Source of the DNA: a virus
Length of the DNA stretch: 64,000 nt
Reading direction: 5' to 3' (one strand)
Virus record (IMG/VR): IMGVR_UViG_3300025018_000006
Span: 1-64,000 of that record
Below, in pieces: positions 3,001 through 44,632 of this stretch (positions are counted from its first letter, which is position 1; each line of letters begins with the position of its first letter). The position numbers and the translations under genes were made by a program. A model generated the notes under the pieces. The model did no database searches and was not told the origin of the DNA. It worked only from the letters and a program-made list of their open reading frames with translations.

Positions 3001-6000
3001 TCAATTTCACCTTCTCTTGTTTCAGATATATCACCAACTCTAAATCCAGGATTCCAATGGCGTTCAAGAATTGATTCCTTTTCATAATTATATCTTGGAA
3101 CAAAATCGACTGGTTTTACACCTTTAGGAGTTTCTGATTCATATTTATAAAGTCCATTTCTGACACTTTCAAGTGATAATTCATTAATATCTCCGGTATC
3201 TTCATTTTCAACAGTTACTTTTCTTCTTTTAATATCAATACTTTTGACTATGTAATGATAAGTATCTATTGGTTCTCTACCGGATCTTCTTCTTATTTGA
3301 TAAACCCTCATCACCTCATCTCCAACTTCTAAATCTCTAAGCCCAACTTCGTGAACTATTTTATCATCAAGTTTAAACCATTTTGTTGCCGGGGCATTTT
3401 CATTAGGAAATGCTTTATATCTTGCTGAAACTTCAATCTCTTTAAATAATTCATTTCGTTTCTCATCAGTATATGCTGACTTAGCGATATTGTTTATTGC
3501 TAAGAAAAATAACTCCTCTGAAGTCATAGATGTTTTACCGTTAAGATCTTCTAAACTATAACCTAAACCTCCTGCATCCTCAGAAGTAGTAAGTTTTGCA
3601 TATAAAGATTTTTCTCCTTCATTACGGATATCACCAATTTCATCTTTATTGAAATTCATAATATCTTTAGTGTAAAGATTCATGAAATGATAAGCAGTAA
3701 GCATATCACGAATAAGATATTCCGGAGTATTCTGATCCCTTAAAGTCTTTTCAAAGTCAGGATATATCTTTTCAACATTCTGACGTTTAAGATAATTCAT
3801 CTGCATTAAACGATCAGTTATATTTTCAGTTTTATCGTTACGAGGAATCTTTACCCAATTACCAATTCTTGCATTTTCTATGATATTGTCTTTACCTCTT
3901 TTAACAATGATTGGAACAATACGAGTTTTTAATACTTTATTTTTCTGCTTAACAGTAATTTCTTTCTGAACCATTTTAGGTGTAAAGCTTTCTGCAGCAT
4001 TATTATTAGAATCCCTGGTTATTTTACCTTCATTCTGTAATTTTTTTACAAGTGTATAGCGTTTATCCTGAACAAACTGTTCTTGTGATTGCTCACTGGC
4101 ATTTAATGAATTTACCCATTCAACAGCAGCTCTTTCATCAGGAGTTAATTCATCTGTTTCTATCGTTTTTTTAATAGGTTCAGCTTTAGGATCTTCCTGT
4201 TCTTCAAGCATATTGCTATACATATTAAGCTGAAGCATATGTTGAGAATATTTTGAATTTGGTATATTTTGAAACGGAGCTTTTAAAGTACCAAATTGCT
4301 TTTTATACTCTGGTAAAGGAGTCATGTCATCCATAGCAAATTCTTTTTCAGTTGTTTTAAAGTCAAAAACTAACAACTGATTATTCCCTATATCAACAAC
4401 AAGATCAGCAAATCCACCGATTCTATATTTTTTACTGATAAGATGAGGTTCTGTAATAAACTTAGCATTAGGATAAGCATCAAGAATATCATCTTTCATA
4501 TCATAAAAATCATTCTTTAATAACCTATACTCCTCAGTAGCAAGTTCACCTTTACCAAAATTAGATTCAATATCTTCTTGAGTAATTACAATTGGCTCTT
4601 TACTAAATACACTTTCCGCAACAGAATGTATAAAGGTTCCATTCTCAGGAACATCTTCACTCCATAATTTTTGGATTGCATCTGATTCAGTCCTGGCTTC
4701 TTCTGCAGACCATTTTTCCTTAGAAAGACCTCTATAAATTTTAAGATCTTTAGCCATGGCAGCTTTAGCTTTAATTATAGGATCAAACTGTTCGCTTAAA
4801 GAAGCTTTAATAACAGAAGTTGCCGATGGAATAGGTTTACTTCCAATATAATGAGTATGAGTATCACCTTCAAAGTTAGGAATCTCTTCTTTTTTGAAAT
4901 TATAAGATATCATATTCTTAACAATAGCCTCTCCATGATTTGTTGATGGATTAATATTGTCAGAATTATTCCAAATAGAATATGCCATATCTTGAACAAG
5001 ATCAGTTTTAGATGAAGCTCCGAATATTTGCTTAACTGCTCTCCAGAACTCTTTAAGTAACTCAACAAACTTTTGTAAAGCACTACCATTCATCTTAACA
5101 TCAGCAAGTTTGTATCCGGCCCTACCTATATCACCAATTATCATTTCTTCAATCTCCGCATCAGTAGATTCAGGAAATTTTTCTTTATAAAGATTTGATA
5201 ACTTAACTTTAACTGGATGATCTGAAGGTAAAGCATCCCAATAAATATGAGCATGTTCATGGAATACAGTAGATTGAACAGCCTTATTTGTATCTACAAA
5301 TACTGCATTCTTAAAAGCATGACCTAAAGCATGAGGATTAATCTCTCTACCATTTCCGCCATTCTTATGAACAAAATCCATAAATTCTTCACGGGAAGAA
5401 AAGAATACAACTCCCGGATACATCTTTCTTAATTTGTCGAATATAAATTTTTGAAGTTCAGGATCTTCAGTAGCTAATGCCTCTCCCATTGTATCAGAAT
5501 CAAGCATACTTTTCGGACTCTCATTACTTTTAGGATATACAGGAAAAGTTGCTTTAGCTTCTCTTTCTAAATCTGACATAAGTCTATTTGCCGCCGGAAC
5601 TAATTCTTTTGTTACACTTTTAATATTTAATCCATAACGACTATTAAGTTCATCTCTTAATGACTGAGCACTGAATTGATGATTTTCCGCATATTCAATA
5701 TATTCATTAGCATTTGTTACCCCCGTTACACCCTCTAGTGTGTCATAAGATATTGGAGTTGCAATATTGGCCAATGATTGATAATCATAATAATTGGCAT
5801 ATGAAGGATTCGCTATCTGCGATTTATCTTTAAACTCTTGAACTCTTGACGCTCTTAATACCCAATTCATCATTTGTAATTTATCAATAGATGAAATGTT
5901 ATTTACTTGCCAATCATATAATTCATTTTGAGCTTTTCGAGATAAACTAATCCTAAAATCTGTACCTAAGAGACTGTAGTAAGATCCGCCGTAAGTACTG

Positions 6001-9000
6001 GTAGTTGTACCAAACTGATAAACAGTATGAGCAGCAAATTTGTCTTGTAATTCACCAGGTAAAGAATCAAAGTCTTCCCTTATTTGTTTAAGATTTTTTT
6101 CTCCAATTTTTGCTTGTCGATAATCTGGAGCTATTTCAAGTCGAAATTTACCATTTCTATAAACTTTCTGAATGGTTTGAAGAAATTTGTTATCAGGATA
6201 TTTTTTTCTGTACTTATCAATATTAGCAAGTAATTCTTTTTCAAGATTAGAAGCACTTTGTCTTACTCCAATAGCTCTTAATGTTGCTATATTACTTAAA
6301 GCATAATCAATGCTTTTTAATTCATTAACGAAAAATCTTTTCTTTTTATTAAACTTATTTAATAAAGCTGATCTAATTTCTAAACCGACCGGAGTGTGAA
6401 TCCATGAATCCTGATAAATATACATATCAGATATTTCAAGCGCTGTTTTAGCTGATTTAAATTCAGTAATAGGTTCACCTCTCTCGTTAAACAAAGGCTT
6501 AACATCAATAAGTTTGAATTTTTCCTTACTGTTTACTCTTATATCGTCATATAAAGCTTTATCTGTTTGAATCTCTACAGAACTCCCAGATGCTCTTTGT
6601 GTTAAATTGTAAAATCTTCTAAGTTCAGGAAGTTCTTGAGATAATTTATAGAACTCAATAATCTGACCTGGTAGATCGCCTTCAAAATCTCTTTTGAATT
6701 TTATTTCCAAATCTTTCATATTAACACTATACATCCCACCATTTTGCCTTCTCATAGCTGAAGTAAAGGCTCTCATTTCAGGAGAAGTAAAGTATTTAAC
6801 AACTTGTTCAATATGCTTTATAATAGCTTTATCATTTTTAGTATCAAGATTTTTATTACCAAGTAAAGCTATAACAAACATATTTGAAGTAATCTCATTA
6901 ATGCCAATATCCTCTATCTTAGGATCAGCAGCATTATCAAATGCAAGATTAAGAAAATTAGCCAAATGAAGTTTTAATTTTCCTTGAGGATCTGCAGCAA
7001 AACCTGTAAGTGAAATTTTACTCTTGCCAGTCTGAAGAACTATTGATCTATTGAATTTGATATTTAAATGAGCGAGAAGTCCGTAAATAGTTACTGCATC
7101 AGTAAGCATTCCTTTCATTTTAACACCAGTCATATTCTCTCTACGAGCTTTATCGAATCCTCTTGGGTCCATAAATGAGAATTGATTTTCTGTTATACCT
7201 TCACGTTCCCTTACTCGTTTAACAATATCATCATAAAGTTTAGTATTAATAGCAGCTTTAATCTTTGCATCAAATTTAGGTTTGGTATAATCTATTGCTA
7301 TCATTTGCATAATCTGATTAGCAATACCTTCTTTTGAATTATCAAGGATAATCTTACCATTCTTATCTTTAAAGAAAACTTGATTAAAACGCTGATCACC
7401 ATCAAAGTCAGATCCTGAAGCTAACTGACTCTCATTATCAAGCATGGTAAAATTACCACCAGATATTTTATGTTTTAATCGACCAACTGTATGTGAATGT
7501 AAATCATCAGCAGGAACTCTTGTTGATATTATATATTCCCCGGGTATAACTCCATTTCTTGCAACTATCTCCCACCACATAATATTCCCATACTCATCAA
7601 ATAAATCTGAGTAATATTCTCTACGTTGAAGCACTTGATTTAAAGCTCCGTCAATATCTCCTTCAAATTGAGCGTCTTCATATCTCGCACCAGTAACATT
7701 AGCAGCTATGTCTGGAAGTAAAATAACATCAGCTTTCCATTCTTTTTCTCCTGTACTATAAGTTCCTGACCAGGATCTTCTACCTTCAAGTAACCCATCA
7801 GGATCAGGTATTTCTTGAGTGGTAAGTCTGTTGATTGGCATCTCAAGAGCTTTTCTGGTTAATGTACCAGCAAGCATTTTTCTTAAGAAATTAGCTAAAG
7901 CAGGTTCATATGGAGTAATCCCTGCTTCAAGCATATCAAATATTTCGGGTTGGGAATGTTGATTAACAGCTTCTTTTAACCATTCAAGTTTAACATCATC
8001 CATGGCCTTACCTTCGAACTCTTTGACCATTTCAATCATCACTTTATTCTGAAGCTTATTAATCAAGTTACTTACAGCCGGCCCATTATCAAGTATAAGT
8101 GTATTGGATAATGTCTGAATAGGCATTTTTGTAGAAGTAGGAATTGAAGAATGTCTAAGATCTTGTTGAATATAGACATGCTTAGTTAATCTGGTAACTA
8201 TTCCATTTTCAGGAATATCAATTTTTTTCTTCAATGAACCATCATCTTCCCACATCTTTATAGATGCATCAATGCGTTCTTTATTATTTTTAGCTTTCTC
8301 GAATTTTTTAGTACCTGAAGTAAATGAAGCTACATCAACTCCTTTTTCATTCATTAAATCCCTTAACTGTTCAAATTTACTTCCTGGAAATGCGTTAGCT
8401 AAAATATCAATATTTAAACGATTTGTTTTCGTCAATCCCCTTAACCCAGTTTCCGGATCAATAAATGAAGTTAATGCTTTTACTGAAGAAAGAACTTTAT
8501 ATTCATCCTGATTAGCTTTACTTAAAATGGTTCCCATTGAAACTTGCATCCTCTCAGCATACTCTCCAGTCATAAATTCTACACCGTCAAACATTTCCCA
8601 ATTGCCCAATTTATCATCTATAAGTGCAAATTGGAATGTTTCTCCAACGCCATTAGCTACAAATTCATTCATCTTAATGCCCGGAGAATTTGACGATCCT
8701 CCACGCTTAACCATGTCTATAAGTGATGTATAAGAATCTTTTTTTCCAAAGAATATTTCATTTGTAGCAGCTATATTATTAGCAAAATTGTAAATAAATT
8801 CCTGAATCTTTTCGTGAGAAAGAGAAGGGAGAAAAGAAGAAAGAAAAGGTTTATACTCAGTTTCAAACCATTTTACTGCATTATCAAATTCAGGGAATCG
8901 TTTTCTCATTGATTGCAGTTGTTCTTCAGTGAGATTAGAAATTTTAGGTGCATCAACAATGGTTAATGAAGGTTTATCTCCAAATTGGCCTATCCAATGT

Positions 9001-12000
9001 GGATAAACTTCCTCTCCCTCAAGAAAAGCTTGAAGTTGAACAAGCCATAAATCTTCATTTGACATTCCTACAGTCTGAGTTCCTTTCTTTCCTTTATTTT
9101 CATCAAGATTATGAATACCATTGATGTAGGAAAGCTCCATTTCTATTCCTTTACTTCTGTAATAATCAACAATATGATTTTTAACCTGACTTTGGGTTAT
9201 ACTTTTTGCAATATCACTTATGTTACTTGACTGCATAAATGAATTAAATCGATCTCCTTTAATATCATTTCCGCTCAAACCTATTTCATCAACTGAAGTT
9301 ATTGCTGTACTTAATTTATAAAGATTAGATAATGCTCCAGTTTGTTCATTACCGATAGTAAAGAAATTATTGAAAGCTAATTCAAAATTAGGTGACTTTA
9401 TTGTTTGATACCATAAATTAAATGCAATATTACTTTGAATACGACGATGATTACCTCGCCAAGTATCATATTTTAATAAATTATCATATGTTGTAAACTC
9501 TGCTTCATTTGCTGATTCTCTTGAGGATTTAGCTTTAGTTTCTGCTGTTTGAGAACTGAAATATTGACTCCATATATCTTTTGAAATACCTGTTATTTCA
9601 CTTAATAAAGAAATATCAGAATTGTGTTGCTCTCTACGAAGTTCTTCACGCTTTTCAGTAGATTGATTATCGTAATATTCCCAGTCTTGATTTTTATTTC
9701 TGAAACGATTATTCATTTCTTCAACATGAACATATATTCTTCTTTTTATAGCATCATAACCGGTATATCCATTCCATGTATAATTTTTTGCATTGTTAAA
9801 AAATGATTCTCTAAACTCATCATATTTTTGAGATGGATTTAATAAAGTCCTTGTAAGCTTTCCTTTATTAAAGATATAACCATACTGTTTTGCTAAATAC
9901 ATATTATTATAATTAGCAAATAAGCTCACTGCTGATCCAATAGTACTCTTCCTGAGCATATCTACTATCTGATCAGTAACTTCATCACGGCCAAGTAAAG
10001 AGCCTAAATATTGGCTAAAAAGTGCTTCATTTTCAAAATTTGATAAAACACCTTCCTGTTTTGCTAATAAATAGAACTTTCTTTCTACAATTTCTTTTGT
10101 TGTATTTGTATTTTCAGCTATAGCTACCCATAATGGAGCAAAACCCTGAAGCAAAGCATCAGTCTTATTTGAACCGCTTAATGCAACACCATGCATTTCT
10201 GGAATTTCAAGATCATCGACTTTTAATTCTTTAGCTTCTTTTGCAAATCCTTTAGCTTTTAACTGCTGTTCAGCAATAGCCTTTTCAACTTTATCACGAT
10301 TATCGTGTGCAAGAGCAATTAAGAATCCTTTCTGCTCATCATCAATAGTATCTAATGATCTTATAAAATCAAGTAGTTTTTCAAAAGCTTTTTCGATCTG
10401 TATTCCACCCCAATCACCTGCATCTTTGACCATCTGAATAAACTTCTTGCCAAGTTCATCTTTTTCACCTTGATCAACTACTCTGTTAATACCACCAGAA
10501 AATATTGCTGCCCCAGTAAAAAACTCAGAAGCACTTTTCTTTAAATTTTCAACAATCTCTTTTTCTTTTCTTTCTAAATCTCTATCCTTTCTTCTTTTTT
10601 CATTAAAGTCTGTTATCTGAACAGATCCTATCACAGTTCCGTCTTCAAGTTTTACATTTATTTTATCGAAATAAGGTATTATTATTCCTTCAATCTTTTT
10701 ACCTATTTCAAGATTTGGATTCCAACTTTCCCATTCTTCAAGTTCTAAACTTAATTTCTGATTTTGTAATACAGCTTGATTAGCCTTTTCATTATCTTTC
10801 TGATCTAAATTTACATTATAAAAAGCATCAACTATTCTACCATCAGAAAGTTTTACCTGAAATTTTCTATTAGTAACATGGCTTGCAGTTCCGGATAATT
10901 TTTCACCTCGATCTAAATCAATTTCAAGTCTTTTATGTTTGTCTTCAATACTTAAATCTTTGAAATTTGTTTTTTGGTTATGAAATTTATTTTGATATTT
11001 ATGAAGTACATCAACTTGTCTTTGAAGTTTTTCAATATCCGGAGTAACATTTACTCTATTACCATACTTATCAAGTTCTACTTTTTCACTTAATTGTTTA
11101 GCAACTTCAGCATGTAAATAATCAATGGATTCTTTATCCGGTTCAAGATACTGACCATTTTGATTTTCCTTAACCAAGAGTCCATTATCAGCAAGATCTT
11201 TATATTTTTCAGTTATTCTTTTATTCTCCTCATCTCTTATTTTTATTTCTTCTTCAGTTAATTCAGATTTTTCATCTTCAAAAATATTAGGATCAAAGTC
11301 ATCTTTCCAATCTTCTTCTCTGTTAAATCCTTGTTTTTTAGTTTCTTCTAAAATTCTGTTTTTACCTTCATTAATAGTTAAACTCGTAACAAGATCAAAT
11401 TGTTCCTGACTCATTCCTTCACCATGCTTATCTATGAATTTCTGGAAAGCATCACTATCAATATAAACACCATCACGTTTTTCAAGAACATCCATCAGAT
11501 CTTGATATACAGGCCTGGATAAAGTAACCTCTTTTTCCTCATTACTCTCAGTATCAGTCATTGTAAACTTGACATCCTTTCCTTGAGTAAAAGCATTTGT
11601 AACATTAGCAGCATACATAGGAACACCAAATAAACCAACAGTCATGAATGTGGTTAATTGATCATCCCAAAAATCTTTACTTTGTGCTGATTTTCCCTGA
11701 ATTACTCTATCTGTAAAATAACCACCAAGTTCTTCAAGATATTCCTCAAAGACACCATCCCAACCAAGTTTATTTCTGGTAATATATTGATTCATATCAG
11801 TAATAGCCTTAATGCCTTTCATTTTCATAAAATCATCAAGAATCTTACGTTCAATAAAATCTTTACCGGTTAATTTTCTTTTAGCGAAATTCGCAGCTTT
11901 ACCAGCACCGGGAATTGCTTTCATTAAATACTGACCACTTCTCTCAAAAGCCATTTCTGTAAAAGCTGACATATATCCTTTAGCTAATCCTTTTCCAAAT

Positions 12001-13835
12001 GAATCTCCTGTATTTTTCTGCAATTCAAAAGTGGCATCATCCATCCCTGGAGCTAATACTATATTAGGCCTGATATTCTCAGCTGTACTTTGGATATACA
12101 TCTGTGGTAATAATGCAGCTTGAGCGGCAGCTCCACTTACTCTTGCGATATTAAGTGTTGTTAAGTCAGCTATTTTAGTTGCAAATTTTCCACTTTTCTT
12201 AGCTAATATTTTTCTCATAACCGGTTTTAACCCGGCACCAAAAGCTTCTTTAGTTGCTGTAAATGCGCCACCAGTATAAGCAAACTCGGCCATATAAGGA
12301 ATCATTTGCATTGCCCCGGCCGTTGCTTTAAACCAGTTTCCTTGAGTATCATAATTATTAGCATATCCTAATGTAGCATATGCCTTCAATGCTAATTCTT
12401 CAGGTAAGGTAATCGATTCTCCTTTTTCAAGTCTTTTAGCAATACCTGTTATATTTAAAGCATCAGCCATTTGTGGAAGCCCAATAAGCATATCACGAGC
12501 ATCAACACTTTTAAATCCTTTTCCAACATCTCTTATACCTCTACGTGCTAAAGGAATTTCGGAAATCTCGCTTAACTGTTCTCTTACTTTAAAGAGCTGA
12601 TTCAAATCTCTTGTTGTATTTGTTAACCAAGCATTAACATTTTCTTTACCATATTTTTTATTTTTCTCACTTAAAGGAAGTGAAGCTGGTGAATTTTTAT
12701 AAAAATCTTGATCATAAGGACTTTTTCCATTTAATTGTCTTTTTTGATCTGCTACATTTCTCCATGGATCAGTAGTATCCATATTAAATATTACACCTGG
12801 TCCAATAGCTGATTCATAATAATCAATTAAATCATTTACCTGATTTAACATATATTCATTAAAAAGCTGAACTCCTTCAATAGTCATATTACCATCTTCA
12901 GAAAATGCAAATTTTTTCAAAAGACTTCCTGCTATTTTATGAGCTAAAGCATCTTTATCTTCAACATCTTCTTTAGTAGCGGCAATTTTCTTTGCTTCCT
13001 GAAATATCATTTGCCTTCTTTTATTTACATCACCATTTAGATATTCCTTTTTATTAGTTGCATTAGACCATACTTTATCTAAATCTTCTTTAGGAATATC
13101 AGCTTCTTTCTTACTTGTTTTCTTTTCATCCTTTCCTGCATATTTAATAGCGGCCCAGGATAAATCAGTTTCAGGACTTTTCTCTTCAAGTCTTTTTTTG
13201 TCAAGTATTTCAAGTTTATCATTGATAACTGAATTATATGCTTTATTAAGAAAATGATCTCCGTATTTTTCTTTTAAATCAGCATCTTTTAATCCATTGA
13301 ATATACCGTAACCTTCTTCAATTTCCTTTTTTATCTCAGGAGTAACTTCTCTTACTTCTGCTTTAAGAGCTTTCTTTTCATTAGATAAATTTTGAATAGC
13401 TTCTTTAGCACCACGAATACCACCAATTGCTTTTGTTTTCCTACCAAGTCTTAAATCAACATTTCTTAAATCAGATTCATATGAATCCATTTCTCTTTTT
13501 AAGTTTTTGATAGTAGCATCAATCTCAGTTACCCGGTCCGTTTTTTCCTTATCGGTAATATACATATCACCGGTTACTTTCTTATAATCATCAACATATT
13601 TTTCAGCTATTTGCTTTACTTCAGCTATATAATCATCTTTAGTTTTATCAAATTTAAAATGATTATCACTTACTCTAACTGCATCTTTAAGAATATCAGG
13701 AGTATCTTGATCTTTTTCATTTGTTGTTGGTGAAGAATATAAATTTCCTGAAAGTTGAGAATCTTTCTGAATAGAAGTAGCACCTTGTAAACCACCAGGT
13801 ACTTTTACTGCATTTTTTAATATCGGATCTGGCAT
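1..13835 (-). CDS. Giant virion protein (>4600 aa, runs off the left edge of the window): crAss-like virion RNA polymerase polyprotein with zincin and PD-(D/E)xK domains
   Basis: ATG at 13835 (MPDPILKNAVKVPGG...). The frame is open at every point I translated, and the ORF track lists no closed minus-strand ORF here. In-frame motifs: STRVPADD...SGSDFDGDQ (DFDGD at 7395-7409), FHEHAHIY...EE (HExxH at 5247-5261), GTFIH..GGFADLVV..FDFKT..LQLNMY (~4200-4650). Confidence 0.85.
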   Translation of the reverse strand, partial: MPDPILKNAVKVPGGLQGATSIQKDSQLSGNLYSSPTTNEKDQDTPDILKDAVRVSDNHFKFDKTKDDYIAEVKQIAEKYVDDYKKVTGDMYITDKEKTDRVTEIDATIKNLKREMDSYESDLRNVDLRLGRKTKAIGGIRGAKEAIQNLSNEKKALKAEVREVTPEIKKEIEEGYGIFNGLKDADLKEKYGDHFLNKAYNSVINDKLEILDKKRLEEKSPETDLSWAAIKYAGKDEKKTSKKEADIPKEDLDKVWSNATNKKEYLNGDVNKRRQMIFQEAKKIAATKEDVEDKDALAHKIAGSLLKKFAFSEDGNMTIEGVQLFNEYMLNQVNDLIDYYESAIGPGVIFNMDTTDPWRNVADQKRQLNGKSPYDQDFYKNSPASLPLSEKNKKYGKENVNAWLTNTTRDLNQLFKVREQLSEISEIPLARRGIRDVGKGFKSVDARDMLIGLPQMADALNITGIAKRLEKGESITLPEELALKAYATLGYANNYDTQGNWFKATAGAMQMIPYMAEFAYTGGAFTATKEAFGAGLKPVMRKILAKKSGKFATKIADLTTLNIARVSGAAAQAALLPQMYIQSTAENIRPNIVLAPGMDDATFELQKNTGDSFGKGLAKGYMSAFTEMAFERSGQYLMKAIPGAGKAANFAKRKLTGKDFIERKILDDFMKMKGIKAITDMNQYITRNKLGWDGVFEEYLEELGGYFTDRVIQGKSAQSKDFWDDQLTTFMTVGLFGVPMYAANVTNAFTQGKDVKFTMTDTESNEEKEVTLSRPVYQDLMDVLEKRDGVYIDSDAFQKFIDKHGEGMSQEQFDLVTSLTINEGKNRILEETKKQGFNREEDWKDDFDPNIFEDEKSELTEEEIKIRDEENKRITEKYKDLADNGLLVKENQNGQYLEPDKESIDYLHAEVAKQLSEKVELDKYGNRVNVTPDIEKLQRQVDVLHKYQNKFHNQKTNFKDLSIEDKHKRLEIDLDRGEKLSGTASHVTNRKFQVKLSDGRIVDAFYNVNLDQKDNEKANQAVLQNQKLSLELEEWESWNPNLEIGKKIEGIIIPYFDKINVKLEDGTVIGSVQITDFNEKRRKDRDLERKEKEIVENLKKSASEFFTGAAIFSGGINRVVDQGEKDELGKKFIQMVKDAGDWGGIQIEKAFEKLLDFIRSLDTIDDEQKGFLIALAHDNRDKVEKAIAEQQLKAKGFAKEAKELKVDDLEIPEMHGVALSGSNKTDALLQGFAPLWVAIAENTNTTKEIVERKFYLLAKQEGVLSNFENEALFSQYLGSLLGRDEVTDQIVDMLRKSTIGSAVSLFANYNNMYLAKQYGYIFNKGKLTRTLLNPSQKYDEFRESFFNNAKNYTWNGYTGYDAIKRRIYVHVEEMNNRFRNKNQDWEYYDNQSTEKREELRREQHNSDISLLSEITGISKDIWSQYFSSQTAETKAKSSRESANEAEFTTYDNLLKYDTWRGNHRRIQSNIAFNLWYQTIKSPNFELAFNNFFTIGNEQTGALSNLYKLSTAITSVDEIGLSGNDIKGDRFNSFMQSSNISDIAKSITQSQVKNHIVDYYRSKGIEMELSYINGIHNLDENKGKKGTQTVGMSNEDLWLVQLQAFLEGEEVYPHWIGQFGDKPSLTIVDAPKISNLTEEQLQSMRKRFPEFDNAVKWFETEYKPFLSSFLPSLSHEKIQEFIYNFANNIAATNEIFFGKKDSYTSLIDMVKRGGSSNSPGIKMNEFVANGVGETFQFALIDDKLGNWEMFDGVEFMTGEYAERMQVSMGTILSKANQDEYKVLSSVKALTSFIDPETGLRGLTKTNRLNIDILANAFPGSKFEQLRDLMNEKGVDVASFTSGTKKFEKAKNNKERIDASIKMWEDDGSLKKKIDIPENGIVTRLTKHVYIQQDLRHSSIPTSTKMPIQTLSNTLILDNGPAVSNLINKLQNKVMIEMVKEFEGKAMDDVKLEWLKEAVNQHSQPEIFDMLEAGITPYEPALANFLRKMLAGTLTRKALEMPINRLTTQEIPDPDGLLEGRRSWSGTYSTGEKEWKADVILLPDIAANVTGARYEDAQFEGDIDGALNQVLQRREYYSDLFDEYGNIMWWEIVARNGVIPGEYIISTRVPADDLHSHTVGRLKHKISGGNFTMLDNESQLASGSDFDGDQRFNQVFFKDKNGKIILDNSKEGIANQIMQMIAIDYTKPKFDAKIKAAINTKLYDDIVKRVREREGITENQFSFMDPRGFDKARRENMTGVKMKGMLTDAVTIYGLLAHLNIKFNRSIVLQTGKSKISLTGFAADPQGKLKLHLANFLNLAFDNAADPKIEDIGINEITSNMFVIALLGNKNLDTKNDKAIIKHIEQVVKYFTSPEMRAFTSAMRRQNGGMYSVNMKDLEIKFKRDFEGDLPGQIIEFYKLSQELPELRRFYNLTQRASGSSVEIQTDKALYDDIRVNSKEKFKLIDVKPLFNERGEPITEFKSAKTALEISDMYIYQDSWIHTPVGLEIRSALLNKFNKKKRFFVNELKSIDYALSNIATLRAIGVRQSASNLEKELLANIDKYRKKYPDNKFLQTIQKVYRNGKFRLEIAPDYRQAKIGEKNLKQIREDFDSLPGELQDKFAAHTVYQFGTTTSTYGGSYYSLLGTDFRISLSRKAQNELYDWQVNNISSIDKLQMMNWVLRASRVQEFKDKSQIANPSYANYYDYQSLANIATPISYDTLEGVTGVTNANEYIEYAENHQFSAQSLRDELNSRYGLNIKSVTKELVPAANRLMSDLEREAKATFPVYPKSNESPKSMLDSDTMGEALATEDPELQKFIFDKLRKMYPGVVFFSSREEFMDFVHKNGGNGREINPHALGHAFKNAVFVDTNKAVQSTVFHEHAHIYWDALPSDHPVKVKLSNLYKEKFPESTDAEIEEMIIGDIGRAGYKLADVKMNGSALQKFVELLKEFWRAVKQIFGASSKTDLVQDMAYSIWNNSDNINPSTNHGEAIVKNMISYNFKKEEIPNFEGDTHTHYIGSKPIPSATSVIKASLSEQFDPIIKAKAAMAKDLKIYRGLSKEKWSAEEARTESDAIQKLWSEDVPENGTFIHSVAESVFSKEPIVITQEDIESNFGKGELATEEYRLLKNDFYDMKDDILDAYPNAKFITEPHLISKKYRIGGFADLVVDIGNNQLLVFDFKTTEKEFAMDDMTPLPEYKKQFGTLKAPFQNIPNSKYSQHMLQLNMYSNMLEEQEDPKAEPIKKTIETDELTPDERAAVEWVNSLNASEQSQEQFVQDKRYTLVKKLQNEGKITRDSNNNAAESFTPKMVQKEITVKQKNKVLKTRIVPIIVKRGKDNIIENARIGNWVKIPRNDKTENITDRLMQMNYLKRQNVEKIYPDFEKTLRDQNTPEYLIRDMLTAYHFMNLYTKDIMNFNKDEIGDIRNEGEKSLYAKLTTSEDAGGLGYSLEDLNGKTSMTSEELFFLAINNIAKSAYTDEKRNELFKEIEVSARYKAFPNENAPATKWFKLDDKIVHEVGLRDLEVGDEVMRVYQIRRRSGREPIDTYHYIVKSIDIKRRKVTVENEDTGDINELSLESVRNGLYKYESETPKGVKPVDFVPRYNYEKESILERHWNPGFRVGDISETREGEIDNEVKTRHIKKVWKFFKNNPSWATIQEFLNEEENVTNLYKEFSVLSEKIEPVAQFIKFMREEAMNHFMAGSISRENREVGANPKHILPQTLNLYYILTNHKDQVWNDFDRVQGIRGNMTPRMIEQRFVPLNLFTTQTEGETKKYMQESFLMNRELERFTGKIDFDIATTESQGVRYWKRPNEVNAEDHPIEREYLEILYKYYEKFDPEHREMVNANRNPRIEISQIFMTRSEFINKYGRRFGPLMEKKLKPSSLDSIKMKVVKGWTRRGKPDYARETDGSVMIRTLGQIKEMYILSEMNDDEKVKFFGKNWRHMFLRIPGVVTEMGKGKANGILTYHIKEAEKISRKGRDELNLPENITKQQRSIPIIGRGNTLYSTSKLVEAEATAIDSMIRSHYLKRLMAPLDWILSRYIEEGVNPESRGLNSIAAYLKAWGEYQLYNIKPEDQLFLKGKTISDIVDFANRVNSLNKIMFSPITQVNNLLIGQTFDLIREPHAVKTGIKRLFGGDGFVYNTEKIKNILRRYQLANITQDALFDQLEKEYRILFGAVDVQDIEKYGYMPMEFVEKVNQFVIFIGLMTDEEWNAYDKKGNTKPGQRNNKLTYHRLSLIEGRVKDIHGDYGKLSAAPFWATNTGKGLLQFRKWLPALLWAQFAPYHLDRNMQVRSGILPTLHILGKMIVYNAQNTAKRQKELQDEIFEANESGEGYSDAWFAYTDEYFDTLIEAVNGGKIKIKDLSDSDKRNLISAIAQVVSYIAITIGSTMLLGGDDNDRYQPFWKRQFMQIFNRYSGDVFFVFSMDNWKYFQENLVPALGLLINGSQFLLDIAYAIKSMFDPTYEKKARYNKDTMLATQGTYKFPISSTYVLPSGSAIRYMTKRWRIHSMRNNYPDLKKFDLDDEDLKEMGINSNLSEFDIIENSYKYKKVYKDMKLSSEYNVLKNKGIDPGTYLDAQIGESLLREESSRLEDALKMMTLQRLYDQGDLGDYDQMLKDATKMRKIKAGK

Positions 13836-38959: not shown

Positions 38960-41077
38960 TTATAATGTTTTTTTTATGTCCGGATCTGAATTTTCATTTT
39001 CATAAGAATAGCCGGGCCTCCACCTACCTTGACCTTCAGACAATTCTGATGGTGAAAATTTTTTTGTTCCTTTGCTATTTTTATCACTTTTAAGTATAGC
39101 ATTTCCATTTTGATCATGAGTCCATTCCGGATCATCATATTTTGGTGCCATTATTTCTGATGATTTTCTTGGCCTTGTTTTCATGTCATTAATACGCATA
39201 ATTGCATAAGCCAATGCATCAACGCTATCCCAGTCTGTACCTATATATTCTTCATCGTATGCTAATAAATCTCTTAGTAATTGAGGAAAATTACAGAACT
39301 GCACAAAATCCTCTACCCATGATTGAACAACTCCAAGTATTAAAGGTTTAGAATACCCAGTCATTTTTGCTCCAAATTTATGTAATTGCTGACTCTTTGG
39401 AGAATCAAAAGCTTTTGGCCTTGGGGATAAATAAATCCTTCCATCATTTTTCAGATAATGGTCGATGACAAAATCCTGCTCGGCATTACACATGGTATTT
39501 CGTTTAAGTCCGTACCATACCGATATTTTAAGACAGTTGTCATAAAACATTTCTTTCCTTGCCGGTCTCTGATAGTATAAGCATATCGGATATTCAGCTC
39601 TATGTATCCCTTCATTTTCTAAATTTACTTTATTTCCTTGTCTAGCAACAATCATTGCACCCAATGAAGAACCTGATTGTGTCTGATCTTGGTTATATCC
39701 GTCAATACCACCAATATCAAGATCAAGTATATCTTTTCTTGGTTCTTGATAAACCCAAACAATATGTCCTTCAGGATCACCTTTTTTAGCCGGACGTGCC
39801 GTTACTTCCAAAGGCATTTTTCTTCTTTTTATTCCATCCTCATCTATATCATAAACCCAGTCAAGAATCATAGGTTTGTATGAAGTTTTATCACCTTCTA
39901 TATCAAAAAGACGAGAATATATTTTTTCATCATTAAAATTATTGCTTCCACCTGACGTAAAAGCTTCTTCAATTGTTAATGGATAGTTCTGATTATGTTC
40001 TTTTAATTTTTTCTTATTTGGCAACTTTGAATATTCTACCCTTTTTCTTAAAATAAAATCCTGAGCTGCTTCAATATCTTCACATCCTAATCTTTGCCAC
40101 GTTTTATATTTTCTCAAATTTGGAATAGCATCTACTTTTTTCCCATCGTCAGGATCAATTAGATATTCACTTTGCTTGTTTCCAAAAAATGGAAAATAAA
40201 GACGAGTACCAGGTACCCAGAATTTTTCTAATCCATAAGATTCAGCATTATCCCAAAATTCTTTAAAATCTTTTGAAGTTGATAATATATTTCCACCGGT
40301 ACCATAAATATAGAAAGTACCTAATATCTGAGAACCAAATTCAAGTGCAGGTTTAATAGATTCAAATGCCTGGCCAAGAAGTTTAAATTGTCCAGATTCC
40401 TCAAAAACAACATCATGAAAATATTCACCCTCGAGTTTCTTTGGATCGTCATACATTGTTTCAAAGGATAGCCTACCCCCATATCCGTCTTCAACATACC
40501 CGCCGATAGGATCTTTTCTTTCATAACCGACATGAAACATTTTATCATTATCCTTAAGAAAATTTAAACGAAGCTCATCATGAAATTTAGCTTGTGCTGC
40601 ATCAAACTTTTTTCTTAAACCAACCTGATAAGTTTCAAGACCTGCTGCAATAGCACCTCTATATCCTTCAATAAATCTAATACCATGACTAAGAATTGTC
40701 TGAGCTTTTTCAGACGCTCCTTTACGCCTGGCTTTAGGCATTACTATACCAGTCTTTTGATATTTCTTTACATAATCGACTAACTTGTAATATTCTAAAT
40801 CAAGATCTACATACATTGGATATGTCGGGCCTCGAAGACCCTGAAGAATCACAAAGTTTAAAAAAAAATAATACCGGCCAGGAATATGTATCCCTCCGGT
40901 ATCGTAACCATTTAAACAACGGTCAAACTGCTCATCCCAAAATTGTTCATAATCCCGGGTACCGATAACTTTTATATTACTTTTTCCATCGGCATAGATA
41001 GGTATATTACCCGCTACTGGCGATGGATCAAATCCTCTTCTTTTGATTAACGGTGTATATGGTTTCTGAAATCCCAT
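38960..41077 (-). CDS. terL: Terminase large subunit
   Basis: KARRKGAS Walker A, VVFEESG Walker B, YGTGG coupling motif, GIDGY...SLGA and WDSVDA nuclease motifs. Confidence 0.92.
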   Translation of the reverse strand: MGFQKPYTPLIKRRGFDPSPVAGNIPIYADGKSNIKVIGTRDYEQFWDEQFDRCLNGYDTGGIHIPGRYYFFLNFVILQGLRGPTYPMYVDLDLEYYKLVDYVKKYQKTGIVMPKARRKGASEKAQTILSHGIRFIEGYRGAIAAGLETYQVGLRKKFDAAQAKFHDELRLNFLKDNDKMFHVGYERKDPIGGYVEDGYGGRLSFETMYDDPKKLEGEYFHDVVFEESGQFKLLGQAFESIKPALEFGSQILGTFYIYGTGGNILSTSKDFKEFWDNAESYGLEKFWVPGTRLYFPFFGNKQSEYLIDPDDGKKVDAIPNLRKYKTWQRLGCEDIEAAQDFILRKRVEYSKLPNKKKLKEHNQNYPLTIEEAFTSGGSNNFNDEKIYSRLFDIEGDKTSYKPMILDWVYDIDEDGIKRRKMPLEVTARPAKKGDPEGHIVWVYQEPRKDILDLDIGGIDGYNQDQTQSGSSLGAMIVARQGNKVNLENEGIHRAEYPICLYYQRPARKEMFYDNCLKISVWYGLKRNTMCNAEQDFVIDHYLKNDGRIYLSPRPKAFDSPKSQQLHKFGAKMTGYSKPLILGVVQSWVEDFVQFCNFPQLLRDLLAYDEEYIGTDWDSVDALAYAIMRINDMKTRPRKSSEIMAPKYDDPEWTHDQNGNAILKSDKNSKGTKKFSPSELSEGQGRWRPGYSYENENSDPDIKKTL

Positions 41078-41607: not shown

Positions 41608-42410
41608 TACCAGTCGTCCTCCTCATAGGTTTCATCTTCCTTTACATTCATTTCAGGTAAAGGTTTCAAAGATTTATGATGTTCAAGCAATGCCTGAGCT
41701 TCATATTTCATGTAAGGAACGGGTATTTTATGTAATTTCAAATGATTATCTACAAACAAAATAGCCATTCTTCCAATTTTTATACCCCACGTTATCTGAG
41801 ACATAAAAGCATAAACGCTTAACTGCAAAGCATAATGATTAAAGTTACAATCTTCCAAATGATCTAATGGCGGTAATAGAAATCTGTTATAGTGCTTGTA
41901 AGGAATTTTCTTTCTTGATACACTATCATATTCTATTCCTTTTGATTCATTGGTTTTGTAATCATAAAAATCAAATACAGTATCTTTACTTCTCTGTCTT
42001 TGAACAACAAGATCACTCATTCCGCTTACCATATATTCCATTGAGTGGATTAAAGCTTCAGGATAATAACGGTATCCCTCTTTAAATATTGGATTTAACT
42101 GAGTTACTACATCATTTAACTTAGGGTCAATCTCTCCGGTTAATAAGTATTTCTCAAGATTATCATGTATCCAGTTACCTCTGTCGATAGATGAATCTCT
42201 TTTTTCATCCCATTGAGCTAATATTTTCTTTTGCTCTGACTTGTCTCCTTTTGCCATAGCAAGAGATATTCCTTGACGATCAAAATGCATTTTTACTTTT
42301 CCAATAACCCTTGTCGTACTAGCTAATTCTTCCCCGAATTTTGTAAAGTATTGGTGAGTATCTTCTTTAAAATAAACGGAGTCGTCTTTATTAAAGATGT
42401 TATCTACCAT
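41607..42410 (-). CDS. PD-(D/E)xK (RecB/Cas4-like) nuclease
   Basis: RGNWIH, SGMSDL, YDYKTN and YALQLSVY motifs. Confidence 0.85.
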   Translation of the reverse strand: MVDNIFNKDDSVYFKEDTHQYFTKFGEELASTTRVIGKVKMHFDRQGISLAMAKGDKSEQKKILAQWDEKRDSSIDRGNWIHDNLEKYLLTGEIDPKLNDVVTQLNPIFKEGYRYYPEALIHSMEYMVSGMSDLVVQRQRSKDTVFDFYDYKTNESKGIEYDSVSRKKIPYKHYNRFLLPPLDHLEDCNFNHYALQLSVYAFMSQITWGIKIGRMAILFVDNHLKLHKIPVPYMKYEAQALLEHHKSLKPLPEMNVKEDETYEEDDW

Positions 42411-43459
42411 TCGTCTGTTCCCTCCTCTTGTTCTTCATCAGGAAGTTCAACACCCATATTCTCTGAATGCTCAAGTAATGTTAAATCAATATTAGCAGCT
42501 TGTTCAGCTTTTGTTTTGTTACGAGGAACATCACCTGTTATGTCTGCCGGTATGTCCGCTGCTGGTGGCCCATAAGGGTTTTTCTTTTCATCGACTGTAA
42601 TATTTTCGGATTCCCCATTGCTATCCTCCTGTTCATAATCAGGTTTATTCTCCTGTAACCCTTTATTCCCACCATTATCGGGATCTGGTTCTGATTGCTC
42701 TTGATCTGATTCTTCTTCTTCAGAATCATCGTTTTTTGCTTCCTGCTGAAGTTTCGCGTCAATAGTGCGAGTACTTTTGTGTAAAACTGATTCATCTTCA
42801 TTGTTATTTTCATTAAGCATTGTATCAGAAGCCTCATTGTCCATCATGATAATGGCTCCACGTTTCATCATATATTCAAAAACTGCTTCAACAATTTCAT
42901 CTTTATTCTTTCCACTTTTAAGCTCTTCCGGAAGTTCTTTTATTGCCTGATCAATAGGAATAGCCTGAGCACGTAAATATCCTGATATTTCTTTAGCAAT
43001 ATTATCAAGCACTGTTTGAGCTTCTGAAAAGAAACCTATATCATCATCAGCTGTGATAAACGGAGTGCTGAATCCCATTTTCTTACCTTCAACTGCTTCA
43101 ATAGTTCCGGTTAATAAAAACCCTTTCTTGGTAGCTTTGGCACCCGTAACACTTATGATGTTCCACAAATACTTTAGCAGAAGATGGACTTTAGATGGTT
43201 CCGCATCTGTAATTGGAAGTATTGAATATGACTGATTATCGTAAAACTTTGAATATGGGGCTATCCAATGTCCGGTTAAATTAAGTAAGAAATATTTGAG
43301 TTTATTGACTTCCTTTTTAAGTTCATCGGAAACCATTACTTTCCTTGTTCTTTTTACATCATCAACAATTTTAAAATGTCCTGATGCAAGGTATTCTTTA
43401 GCCTCAACTACAATACCATCATTACCCTCATTTAAGAGTTTAAATTTCATAATATTCAT
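42404..43459 (-). CDS. Hypothetical protein with acidic disordered C-terminus
   Basis: 351-aa ORF in the operon; ends EEGTDEW. Confidence 0.6.
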   Translation of the reverse strand: MNIMKFKLLNEGNDGIVVEAKEYLASGHFKIVDDVKRTRKVMVSDELKKEVNKLKYFLLNLTGHWIAPYSKFYDNQSYSILPITDAEPSKVHLLLKYLWNIISVTGAKATKKGFLLTGTIEAVEGKKMGFSTPFITADDDIGFFSEAQTVLDNIAKEISGYLRAQAIPIDQAIKELPEELKSGKNKDEIVEAVFEYMMKRGAIIMMDNEASDTMLNENNNEDESVLHKSTRTIDAKLQQEAKNDDSEEEESDQEQSEPDPDNGGNKGLQENKPDYEQEDSNGESENITVDEKKNPYGPPAADIPADITGDVPRNKTKAEQAANIDLTLLEHSENMGVELPDEEQEEGTDEW

Positions 43460-43543
43460 AACGATAACGTTTTATTAATAAAAAAATATAAATACAAATA
43501 TAAAAAAATCCTGGCAATATTTATATATCACCAGGATTAAGGA

Positions 43544-43800: not shown

Positions 43801-44430
43801 TTAAAGTTTCAAATCATCTGCAGTAGGCTCTATCTTATCCTCTGTTTCCGGTACCTTACTTGATGGATATGGATTAGGAGTATTAAGTCTCTTTAAATCC
43901 ATTCCAAGCCACATAATCCCTTCCTGCAATTTGGTAACCGATAAAGATTTTTCACGAGAAGGAAATCTGTCTGCACATTTCTTAACTTCTTGAAGCATAT
44001 TATCAATTCCTTTTCTTAATCCTTTTATCTGAACAATCTCAGATGGTTCGGTAATTTTCTTTTCGGGAGTAAACACATCTACAATGGCTTTGAAAAGAGC
44101 ATCTTTCTTTCTTTGAAATTCCGGTAAGTCATCATAAGGAACAAGGCATGGATGAGTCTTTACTTCAGGATCTTTTTCCTCACCAAGAATCCAACCGTCT
44201 TCAATTTTTTCAATCATCCAATTATCATGCATCTTCTTATCTGTAACAAACGGATTATTCAAACGAAAAGCAACTCCATTATATGCAGATTGCTGCTGCC
44301 ATTTTGGTGCATTATCCCAATCAAACTGTGAAAAATCTCCATTGTTTTCACAATATGCTTTATTTGCCTGATGACAAATTTTAGCTATTTCCAATATAGG
44401 CTCAGGACTAAATACCTCTCTTTTTTCCAT
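43801..44430 (-). CDS. RyR-domain protein fused to an Acb2/Tad1-like helical hairpin
   Basis: HDNWM.EK..DGW..G..KD...KTHPCLVPYDDLP..QR.KD (RyR) plus SREKSLSVTKLQEGIMWL. Confidence 0.7.
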   Translation of the reverse strand: MEKREVFSPEPILEIAKICHQANKAYCENNGDFSQFDWDNAPKWQQQSAYNGVAFRLNNPFVTDKKMHDNWMIEKIEDGWILGEEKDPEVKTHPCLVPYDDLPEFQRKKDALFKAIVDVFTPEKKITEPSEIVQIKGLRKGIDNMLQEVKKCADRFPSREKSLSVTKLQEGIMWLGMDLKRLNTPNPYPSSKVPETEDKIEPTADDLKL

Positions 44431-44434
44431 AATT

Positions 44435-44632
44435 CTATCTTTTATTAGTTAATAATACTGCTAATCCCCATAAAATCACGTCAAATACAGCTGTTGCAAT
44501 ATGCCAGATAAGAATCCACAACAAAGCCGTTCCAAATGTATCAGGTTTAGTTTTGTTAAAAGTAACAATACCTATCACTATCCACATTACTAACATTAAC
44601 GCTGTAAATATACATGATGAATATTCTTTCAT
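44435..44632 (-). CDS. Small two-TM membrane protein
   Basis: 65 aa, hydrophobic. Confidence 0.5.
   Translation of the reverse strand: MKEYSSCIFTALMLVMWIVIGIVTFNKTKPDTFGTALLWILIWHIATAVFDVILWGLAVLLTNKR

Follow-up and report, generated by a model that had tools for sequence, protein, structure and literature searches.

A viral gene joining a RyR domain to an Acb2/Tad1-type hairpin module: a candidate two-module counter-defence protein

The DNA analysed here (the window) comprises positions 1 to 64,000 of the IMG/VR virus record IMGVR_UViG_3300025018_000006, a record of 80,514 bp with direct terminal repeats that is rated 100% complete. Our subject is one gene of this window, located at 43801..44430 on the minus strand, whose 209-amino-acid (aa) product carries a RyR domain in its N-terminal part and an Acb2/Tad1-type helical hairpin in its C-terminal part. 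We consider it probable that this gene encodes a two-module counter-defence protein directed against bacterial nucleotide immune signalling, in which the RyR head sponges cyclic ADP-ribose (cADPR) and the hairpin module traps cyclic trinucleotides. A reading of the letters without database searches (the sequence-only reading) had proposed a fusion of this kind as a possible dual anti-defence protein; both of its domain calls held, and a two-module anti-signalling protein appears, as far as sequence can tell, to be the best-supported interpretation.

The open reading frame (ORF) runs uninterrupted on the minus strand from an ATG start at 44430 to a stop codon at 43801-43803, an assignment based on the ORF list and its translation, Pfam, and an alignment of fusion relatives (A1) described below. 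The RyR signature announced for the N-terminal part was recovered as a match of residues 65-110 to Pfam RyR PF02026 (E 4.3e-12, 46.6 bits for a cut-off of 27.4), and Pfam Acb2_Tad1_hairpin PF24729 matched residues 128-175 (E 1.5e-6, 28.7 bits for a cut-off of 27). The C-terminal string that had drawn attention to the hairpin, SREKSLSVTKLQEGIMWL, corresponds to residues 158-175 and lies within the PF24729 match. A six-frame search of the phage genome gave 47.1 bits for RyR and 30.8 bits for the hairpin, both in the frame of the fusion ORF, and the whole genome holds exactly one match to each model, both in this ORF. Close relatives score 31-41 bits with PF24729. Because a profile of the C-terminal module matches the Tad1 protein CmTad1 and the module is 60-80% identical to proteins bearing PF24729 (see below), both domain signals are judged to be well beyond chance. 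Among PHROGs the N-terminal part matches families without known function, and NCBIfam and PADLOC scans of the fusion protein returned no match.

The RyR (R12-like) head spans residues 9-120 (44071..44406, minus strand, as for the segments that follow), is made of four helices and was delimited from AlphaFold2 (AF2) models, a Pfam core at 44101-44238, BLASTP and Foldseek. It is followed by a linker of residues 121-130 (44041..44070), a 10-residue block with an AF2 predicted local distance difference test score (pLDDT) of 65 whose length varies among homologues, with insertions of up to about 45 columns in A1. The Acb2/Tad1-type helical hairpin occupies residues 131-181 (43888..44040), as supported by PF24729, a profile match to PDB entry 8KBB and a model of self-association, and the protein ends in a conserved tail of residues 182-209 (43804..43887), NPYPSSK...IEPTAD.LKL, whose columns are invariant or nearly so in 21 sequences and whose pLDDT is 42-54.

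Phage RyR proteins have lately been reported to cleave or sequester 2'/3'cADPR (PMC13232231; 10.64898/2026.06.04.730250; both 2026 preprints), which renders outdated the view of the sequence-only reading that the role of RyR in phages is unclear; with RyR function already published, the fusion no longer serves to reveal that function but joins two known modules. One of the characterised proteins, RyR Tad (gp68 of Pectobacterium phage CB1), is a dimeric sponge of glycocyclic ADP-ribose (gcADPR), and its double mutants H129A/W132A, H154A/K147A and K170A/D171A bind gcADPR about 100-fold more weakly (10.64898/2026.06.04.730250). The head is 49% identical to RyR Tad over 106 aa (BLASTP, E 1e-34; the RyR Tad and RyDEP sequences were taken from their GenBank records), and H129/W132, K147/H154 and K170/D171 of RyR Tad correspond to H68/W71, K86/H93 and K109/D110, identical at all six positions. 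Another, RyDEP (gp78 of Mycobacterium phage DyoEdafos, PDB 35TM), is an enzyme with the catalytic dyad H75/D117, whose W78 and H100 contact the ligand (PMC13232231); the head is 32% identical to it over 75 aa (BLASTP, E 3e-12), and H75, W78, H100 and D117 are found as H68, W71, H93 and D110, four of the five mutated residues being kept. The ligand-pocket residues of the head are invariant in 23 close relatives. The AF2 model of the fusion protein has a pLDDT of 85.6 overall and above 90 across the head, where it places helices at residues 9-29, 43-58, 64-77 and 104-120, and Foldseek matched the head to the RyR repeat structures 6UHI (E 4.9e-4) and 3NRT; the RyDEP/RyR Tad family is marked by a castanet-like fold of four helices. 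H68, W71, K86, H93, K109 and D110 are thus putative cADPR-binding residues, and the head is assigned by its sequence to the RyDEP/RyR Tad family, nearer the sponge type.

The C-terminal part is equally recognisable. Searching shorter proteins with residues 121-209 gave 788 matches at E <= 0.01, and the 120 listed among them are proteins of 79-91 aa that are 60-80% identical to these residues and all carry PF24729; some of the matches listed are named 'Acb2/Tad1 domain-containing protein' and come from Bacteroidales or Caudoviricetes, and one cluster of stand-alone relatives occurs on at least 1000 contigs. By these comparisons the C-terminal part is a complete copy of a widespread stand-alone phage gene of about 81 aa, which implies that the module has a function of its own. 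A profile built from the module and 20 stand-alone relatives (A2, 21 sequences) matched CmTad1 (8KBB) in the PDB with E 2.8e-6 over the motif and CbTad1 with E 0.16; it found no Acb2 chain at E <= 10. The likeness to Tad1/Acb2 sponges put forward by the sequence-only reading is thereby borne out for the Tad1 hairpin, to which the module is nearer by sequence than to Pseudomonas Acb2, as detailed further on.

When the residue roles described for Tad1 in PMC10680739 and for Acb2 in PMC10312549 are mapped onto the alignment of A2 with 8KBB, R88 and T95 of CmTad1, which bind trinucleotide phosphates, align with R159 and T166; K96, Q98, E99, M102 and W103 of the hexamer interface align with K167, Q169, E170, M173 and W174; and C87, A91 and M92, which line the bases, align with S158, S162 and L163, while K106 is M177 in the fusion protein. 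The 7-residue spacing of R159/T166 is that of R67/T74 in PaMx33 Acb2, where these residues line the trinucleotide pocket together with A70/I71 (PMC10312549), and S162 and L163 stand at the A70 and I71 positions. According to the same source, JBD67 Acb2, which has both the Arg and the Thr, binds cyclic tri-adenylate (cA3) at 3.5 nM, and T4 Acb2, which has the Thr only, shows no cA3 binding. Outside this motif, the tail columns of A2 are invariant or near-invariant, as are K136, R139, D143 and Q147 of the first hairpin helix; the tail may possibly act as a lid on the pocket.

AF2 models of the module consist of two long helices (residues 131-155 and 159-181) and a low-confidence tail that is disordered in the monomer. 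Over three runs, a model of three copies of the module had a median interface score (ipSAE) of 0.77, while the best of three controls scored 0.00; the runs agreed in at least 60% of contacts, with a partner pLDDT of at least 68. Of proteins solved as one-chain pairs, 20 of 30 attain this ipSAE mark, as does 1 of 23 solved as single chains, counts that are only rough for the module, which was modelled with a custom alignment and in three copies; the pass may also stem from model memory, similar Tad1/Acb2 complexes having already been solved. The confident contacts pair two chains symmetrically along both helices, and the model supports self-association of the module as a dimer, compatible with a trimer of dimers. 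Of the oligomer modelling that the sequence-only reading had suggested, the dimer thus passed its controls and the three-fold ring did not appear.

From the observed domain identities, residue conservation, stand-alone occurrence of both halves and modelled self-association we infer ligands, a hexameric state, simultaneous binding and a role in vivo as follows. The RyR head would bind 3'cADPR and 2'cADPR, which are signals of Thoeris, in a pocket formed by H68, W71, K86, H93, K109 and D110, most likely as a RyR Tad-type sponge and less likely as a RyDEP-type glycosidase. The hairpin and tail would form a complete, self-associating Acb2/Tad1-type module that assembles into a Tad1/Acb2-like trimer of dimers, where the phosphates of a bound cyclic trinucleotide would be held between R159 and T166 contributed by different chains; the trinucleotide would be cA3 or cAAG, with which type III CBASS (cyclic oligonucleotide-based anti-phage signalling system) signals. 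One protein may in this manner remove the signals of two defence systems, as Tad1 does, with an unrelated RyR head replacing the β-sheet domain. Because RyDEP and RyR Tad dimerise via α1 and α4 (PMC13232231; 10.64898/2026.06.04.730250) and the Tad1 core is a D3 hexamer built as a trimer of dimers (PMC10680739), an arrangement of three RyR dimers round a D3 core would be geometrically plausible.

A number of results weigh against this mechanism and are given here and beside the alternatives that they concern. The PF24729 score of the fusion protein is only 1.7 bits over the Pfam gathering threshold. Foldseek found nothing for the hairpin in the PDB at E <= 0.001, CmTad1 being the top hit at E ~1; re-scoring with VIA-align put 169 of 217 chains at Z >= 5, with designed bundles and coiled coils ranked highest and Tad1 absent from the 50 entries listed. 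The best match in BFVD was a crAssphage protein named 'Acb2/Tad1 hairpin' (52% identity, E 1.9e-3), a name shared by 11 of the 50 rows listed, none of them at E <= 0.001. A two-helix hairpin is too common a shape, and fold comparison was rejected as a test of its identity; the structural alignment to Tad1 and Acb2 that had been suggested at the outset turned out to be non-discriminating, and support came from sequence instead. In addition, hhalign of A2 with JBD67 Acb2 was non-significant (probability 1.2%, E 0.042), the R and T being in register over the 19 aligned columns of this non-significant match. The Acb2 dinucleotide site Y11/K26 of the N-terminal helix was not identified, this region lying outside the alignments, and about 39 module residues precede the Arg, as compared with 66 in PaMx33 Acb2. 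N92, a residue of the Tad1 gcADPR pocket, is K161 in the fusion protein.

The alternative that survives best is that the module binds no ligand and just oligomerises the RyR heads, which would make the protein a single-target, higher-valency anti-Thoeris sponge. The R and T of Tad1 also help to form and hold together the hexamer (PMC10680739), so that their conservation alone is no proof of ligand binding, and the module is found C-terminal to at least 20 other clusters of unrelated N-terminal extensions, as an oligomerisation chassis would be. The three-copy model, too, supports self-association only: its third chain touches the others via one residue and no three-fold trinucleotide ring is formed, although the absence of a C3 ring round the trinucleotide pocket was not counted as evidence against a hexamer. 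A bare scaffold, however, would be functionless in the abundant stand-alone gene (788 matches, one cluster on at least 1000 contigs), the conservation of the tail and of K136, R139, D143 and Q147 exceeds packing needs, and Tad1 and Acb2 bind trinucleotides by exactly the residues in question (PMC10680739; PMC10312549). We leave a small but real chance to this explanation.

Alternatively, the second ligand may be another one, such as 3'cADPR (as for Acb2_43), a cyclic dinucleotide or the signal of an undescribed system, held in a pocket built by the tail. The tail is as conserved as the R/T motif and is without counterpart in the aligned Tad1 segment. Acb2 homologues vary widely in specificity, some binding 3'cADPR and not cyclic GMP-AMP (cGAMP), and of 84 sponges tested against seven systems, 19 had no inhibitory effect on any (10.1101/2025.08.24.671296); for both reasons ligand specificity is unpredictable from membership in a sponge family. 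Against a different ligand stands the fit of R159/T166, S162 and L163 to the trinucleotide-pocket pattern of CmTad1 (C87, A91, M92) and Acb2 (R67, A70, I71), and a different ligand would be compatible with trinucleotide binding as well. On balance this explanation seems unlikely.

A further alternative concerns the head, which might be an inverting glycosidase of the RyDEP type, converting 2'/3'cADPR to ADP-ribose, joined to a sponge. In favour of this, H68/D110 take the positions of the RyDEP dyad H75/D117 and do not vary across the clade; the non-catalytic sponge RyR Tad has these residues too, however, and since the dyad also occurs in non-catalytic homologues, sequence alone cannot separate sponge from enzyme for the head. 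Tests of eight further phage RyR homologues showed binding of 2'/3'cADPR by six and cleavage by none, two of the six being nanomolar sponges in vivo (PMC13232231), so that no other RyDEP homologue tested in that work was catalytic despite the conservation. RyDEP Q54 aligns with A49 of the fusion protein, a departure from the RyDEP pocket that speaks against an enzyme and is shared with RyR Tad, which has an Ala at this position too. The head is 49% identical to the sponge as compared with 32% to the enzyme, and no NARP1-like NAD+ salvage genes were seen among ten scanned neighbours. We regard an enzymatic head as distinctly unlikely. Very improbable, finally, is a role outside counter-defence, as a regulator of phage or host metabolism that binds ATP or other adenine nucleotides and shares sponge folds: animal RyR R12 domains do bind ATP and drugs, but the phage RyR proteins characterised in the same sources all act on Thoeris signals (PMC13232231; 10.64898/2026.06.04.730250), and RyR is joined in its fusions to modules with anti-defence roles (Tad2, gp5.9 and the Acb2/Tad1 hairpin).

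Read as a two-module sponge, the fusion protein recalls several known systems without coinciding with any of them. Like RyR Tad of Pectobacterium phage vB_PatP_CB1, it has two domains, and it is the RyR part of gp68 that acts on Thoeris signals; unlike it, the RyR domain is N-terminal and has an Acb2/Tad1 hairpin as its partner, whereas in gp68 RyR is C-terminal and follows a β-sheet domain without detected activity (10.64898/2026.06.04.730250). With RyDEP it shares the PF02026 family and a four-helix head, but RyDEP is a single-domain glycosidase encoded inside a NARP1 operon (PMC13232231). The resemblance to Tad1 (CmTad1, 8KBB-8KBD; CbTad1, 7UAV/7UAW) lies in the C-terminal hairpin with its R..(A/S)(M/L)..TKLQE..MW motif and in the overall logic of a gcADPR-binding head on a hairpin core, gcADPR binding by the fusion protein being predicted from its sequence. 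Here an all-helical RyR head takes the place of the N-terminal antiparallel β-sheet of Tad1, which contributes to the gcADPR/dinucleotide pocket; in CbTad1 this pocket lies partly on the hairpin (F82, N92, R109, R113), of which N92 is not kept, and the module of the fusion protein has an extra conserved tail of 28 residues. A Tad1 hexamer holds six gcADPR and two trinucleotides.

The fusion protein belongs with Acb2 (PaMx33, JBD67, T4 Vs.4) to the PF24729 hairpin family, the stand-alone forms of both being small phage proteins, but its similarity to JBD67 Acb2 is not significant in pairwise or profile comparison, its tail differs and the Y11/K26 helix is without evident counterpart. In placing two signal-binding modules in one polypeptide it would resemble Tad2-Acb4, Sequestin-Tad2/Acb4 and Acb4-Sequestin (phage Ab09), published sponge-sponge fusions for some of which (Tad2-Acb4, Sequestin) dual inhibition of Thoeris and CBASS is described; the pair of modules is a different one.

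The architecture is not confined to the window: about 39 proteins with the fusion were found, one of them in a cultured roseophage. A search with the whole protein gave 621 matches at E <= 0.001, and both Pfam domains are annotated in 32 of the 120 listed. Alignment A1 contains 37 sequences, the fusion protein included, that have the order RyR, linker, hairpin and tail, with 44-68% identity and variable linkers, and contigs with such relatives measure up to 75-83 kb. Other arrangements occur among the relatives: P0078 has the reverse order, with the Acb2/Tad1 hairpin (E 1.5e-20) first and RyR second, P0039 fuses RyR to a Tad2-like domain (PF11195, E 1.4e-18), P0074 fuses it to a T7 gp5.9 RecBCD-inhibitor domain (PF25708, E 2.4e-16), and P0072 has a different hairpin. 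The partners Tad2, gp5.9 and the hairpin in reverse order were counted in favour of the logic of fusion. In a tree of RyR domains (quick IQ-TREE, LG+G4; 120 rows by 109 columns) fusions occupy 39 scattered rows and require 11 changes, a count from which rows labelled LONG, except P0035, were left out; multiple origins of the same-order fusions were nevertheless dropped, as an approximately unbiased (AU) test, with p 0.333, did not reject their forming a single clade.

Among 50,697 phage records the fusion was found only in Sulfitobacter phage phiCB2047-B (N4-like, two records), whose SUFG_00048 is a protein of 188 aa annotated as hypothetical that matches the RyR model at 40.5 bits and the hairpin model at 33.4 bits and is 50% identical to the fusion protein, without the long tail. 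Its gene, at 3980-4546 of locus L001, adjoins a thymidylate synthase gene, and this cultured N4-like roseophage would be a tractable isolate. A Ruegeria phage homologue was rejected as a fusion, being a stand-alone RyR protein of 122 aa. In IMG/VR, fusions account for six of 80 retained RyR loci. One of the six (L006) is syntenic with the window as far as the terminase, and in the other five at most one further nearby ORF matches the window, the sparse sharing of neighbours expected of a mobile accessory gene. None of the 80 loci has a separate hairpin ORF within about 4 kb, as searched with profile A2.

The hairpin-tail module is also present C-terminally in 105 longer metagenomic proteins (P0242-P0352). 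BLAST groups their N-terminal extensions (35 aa or more) into 21 clusters, one of them RyR. The largest cluster is a helical domain of about 54 aa in 69 proteins, followed by a domain of about 62 aa in 10 proteins; eight extensions that were scanned gave no Pfam match, and some singleton extensions may represent mis-called starts or low-complexity sequence. The non-RyR extensions are candidates for new heads carried by a sponge chassis. In P0100 (148 aa) and P0341 the hairpin module is duplicated in tandem within one polypeptide. It is possible, and we suggest it only tentatively, that the hairpin-tail serves phages as a general hexameric chassis that has trinucleotide pockets of its own and accepts interchangeable heads; on this view the RyR fusion would have re-created Tad1 convergently from an unrelated head, with six cADPR and two trinucleotide sites per hexamer, and the roughly 20 other N-terminal clusters would be undescribed sponge or anti-defence domains. 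Should this hold, new anti-defence domains would be discoverable by guilt by fusion.

A fusion of RyR with the hairpin was not found in the literature searched, in which the papers on sponges were covered by their main texts. The passages of the RyR Tad preprint that deal with Acb2 are not about such a fusion (10.64898/2026.06.04.730250), the text of the RyDEP preprint makes no mention of Acb2, Tad1 or the fusion (PMC13232231), and the preprints on sponge fusions and sponge diversity make no mention of RyR or ryanodine. Each module has already been published, as has the principle of fusing sponges, and the pairing alone appears to be unreported; the gain is incremental, a new combination of known sponge modules. 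If the proposed mechanism is correct, one small protein would cover a crAss-like phage against Thoeris (cADPR isomers) and trinucleotide CBASS simultaneously, and would represent a third build of a dual sponge, the earlier two being that of Tad1 itself and the fusions among Tad2, Acb4 and Sequestin. The occurrence of RyR in fusions with three distinct anti-defence modules also lends independent genomic support to the 2026 preprints that assign phage RyR to the control of immune signals. The hairpin-tail subfamily of about 81 aa, abundant in Bacteroidales prophages and crAss-like phages, and its fusion partners are in turn sponge candidates.

In the genome, the fusion gene belongs to a row of small leftward genes (roughly 46.1 to 43.5 kb); a scan of eight further ORFs in the 42.4-46.1 kb interval gave no match to a family of known function. 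The ORF immediately upstream, 4 bp away at 44435-44632 (minus strand), encodes a hydrophobic protein of 65 aa with only a weak, sub-threshold match to DUF420 (E 0.0015). A terminator-like hairpin at 43507..43538 (minus strand), a 14-pair stem followed by a run of T found in a consensus scan, would close the leftward small-gene block; the scan returned two terminator-like sites as compared with 1.4 expected from shuffles, and for this reason the site is only suggestive of a terminator. Between this block and an exonuclease gene, 42404-43459 (minus strand) encodes a protein of 351 aa whose C-terminal half is very acidic and of low complexity and which matches nothing in Pfam or PHROGs; a 31%-identical homologue occupies the same place in L006. 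The Pfam model of Tad2 found no match in this genome, nor did those of Acb4 and Sequestin, which were silent in control genomes too, so that absence of the latter two is not shown. The large terminase (38960-41077) is nearest to those of crAss-like phages, at 23-25% identity. At the left end of the window, 3-13835 (minus strand) is a single open frame of more than 4,611 codons that runs past the window edge and, together with the crAss-like terminase, fits a giant protein of the virion RNA-polymerase type.

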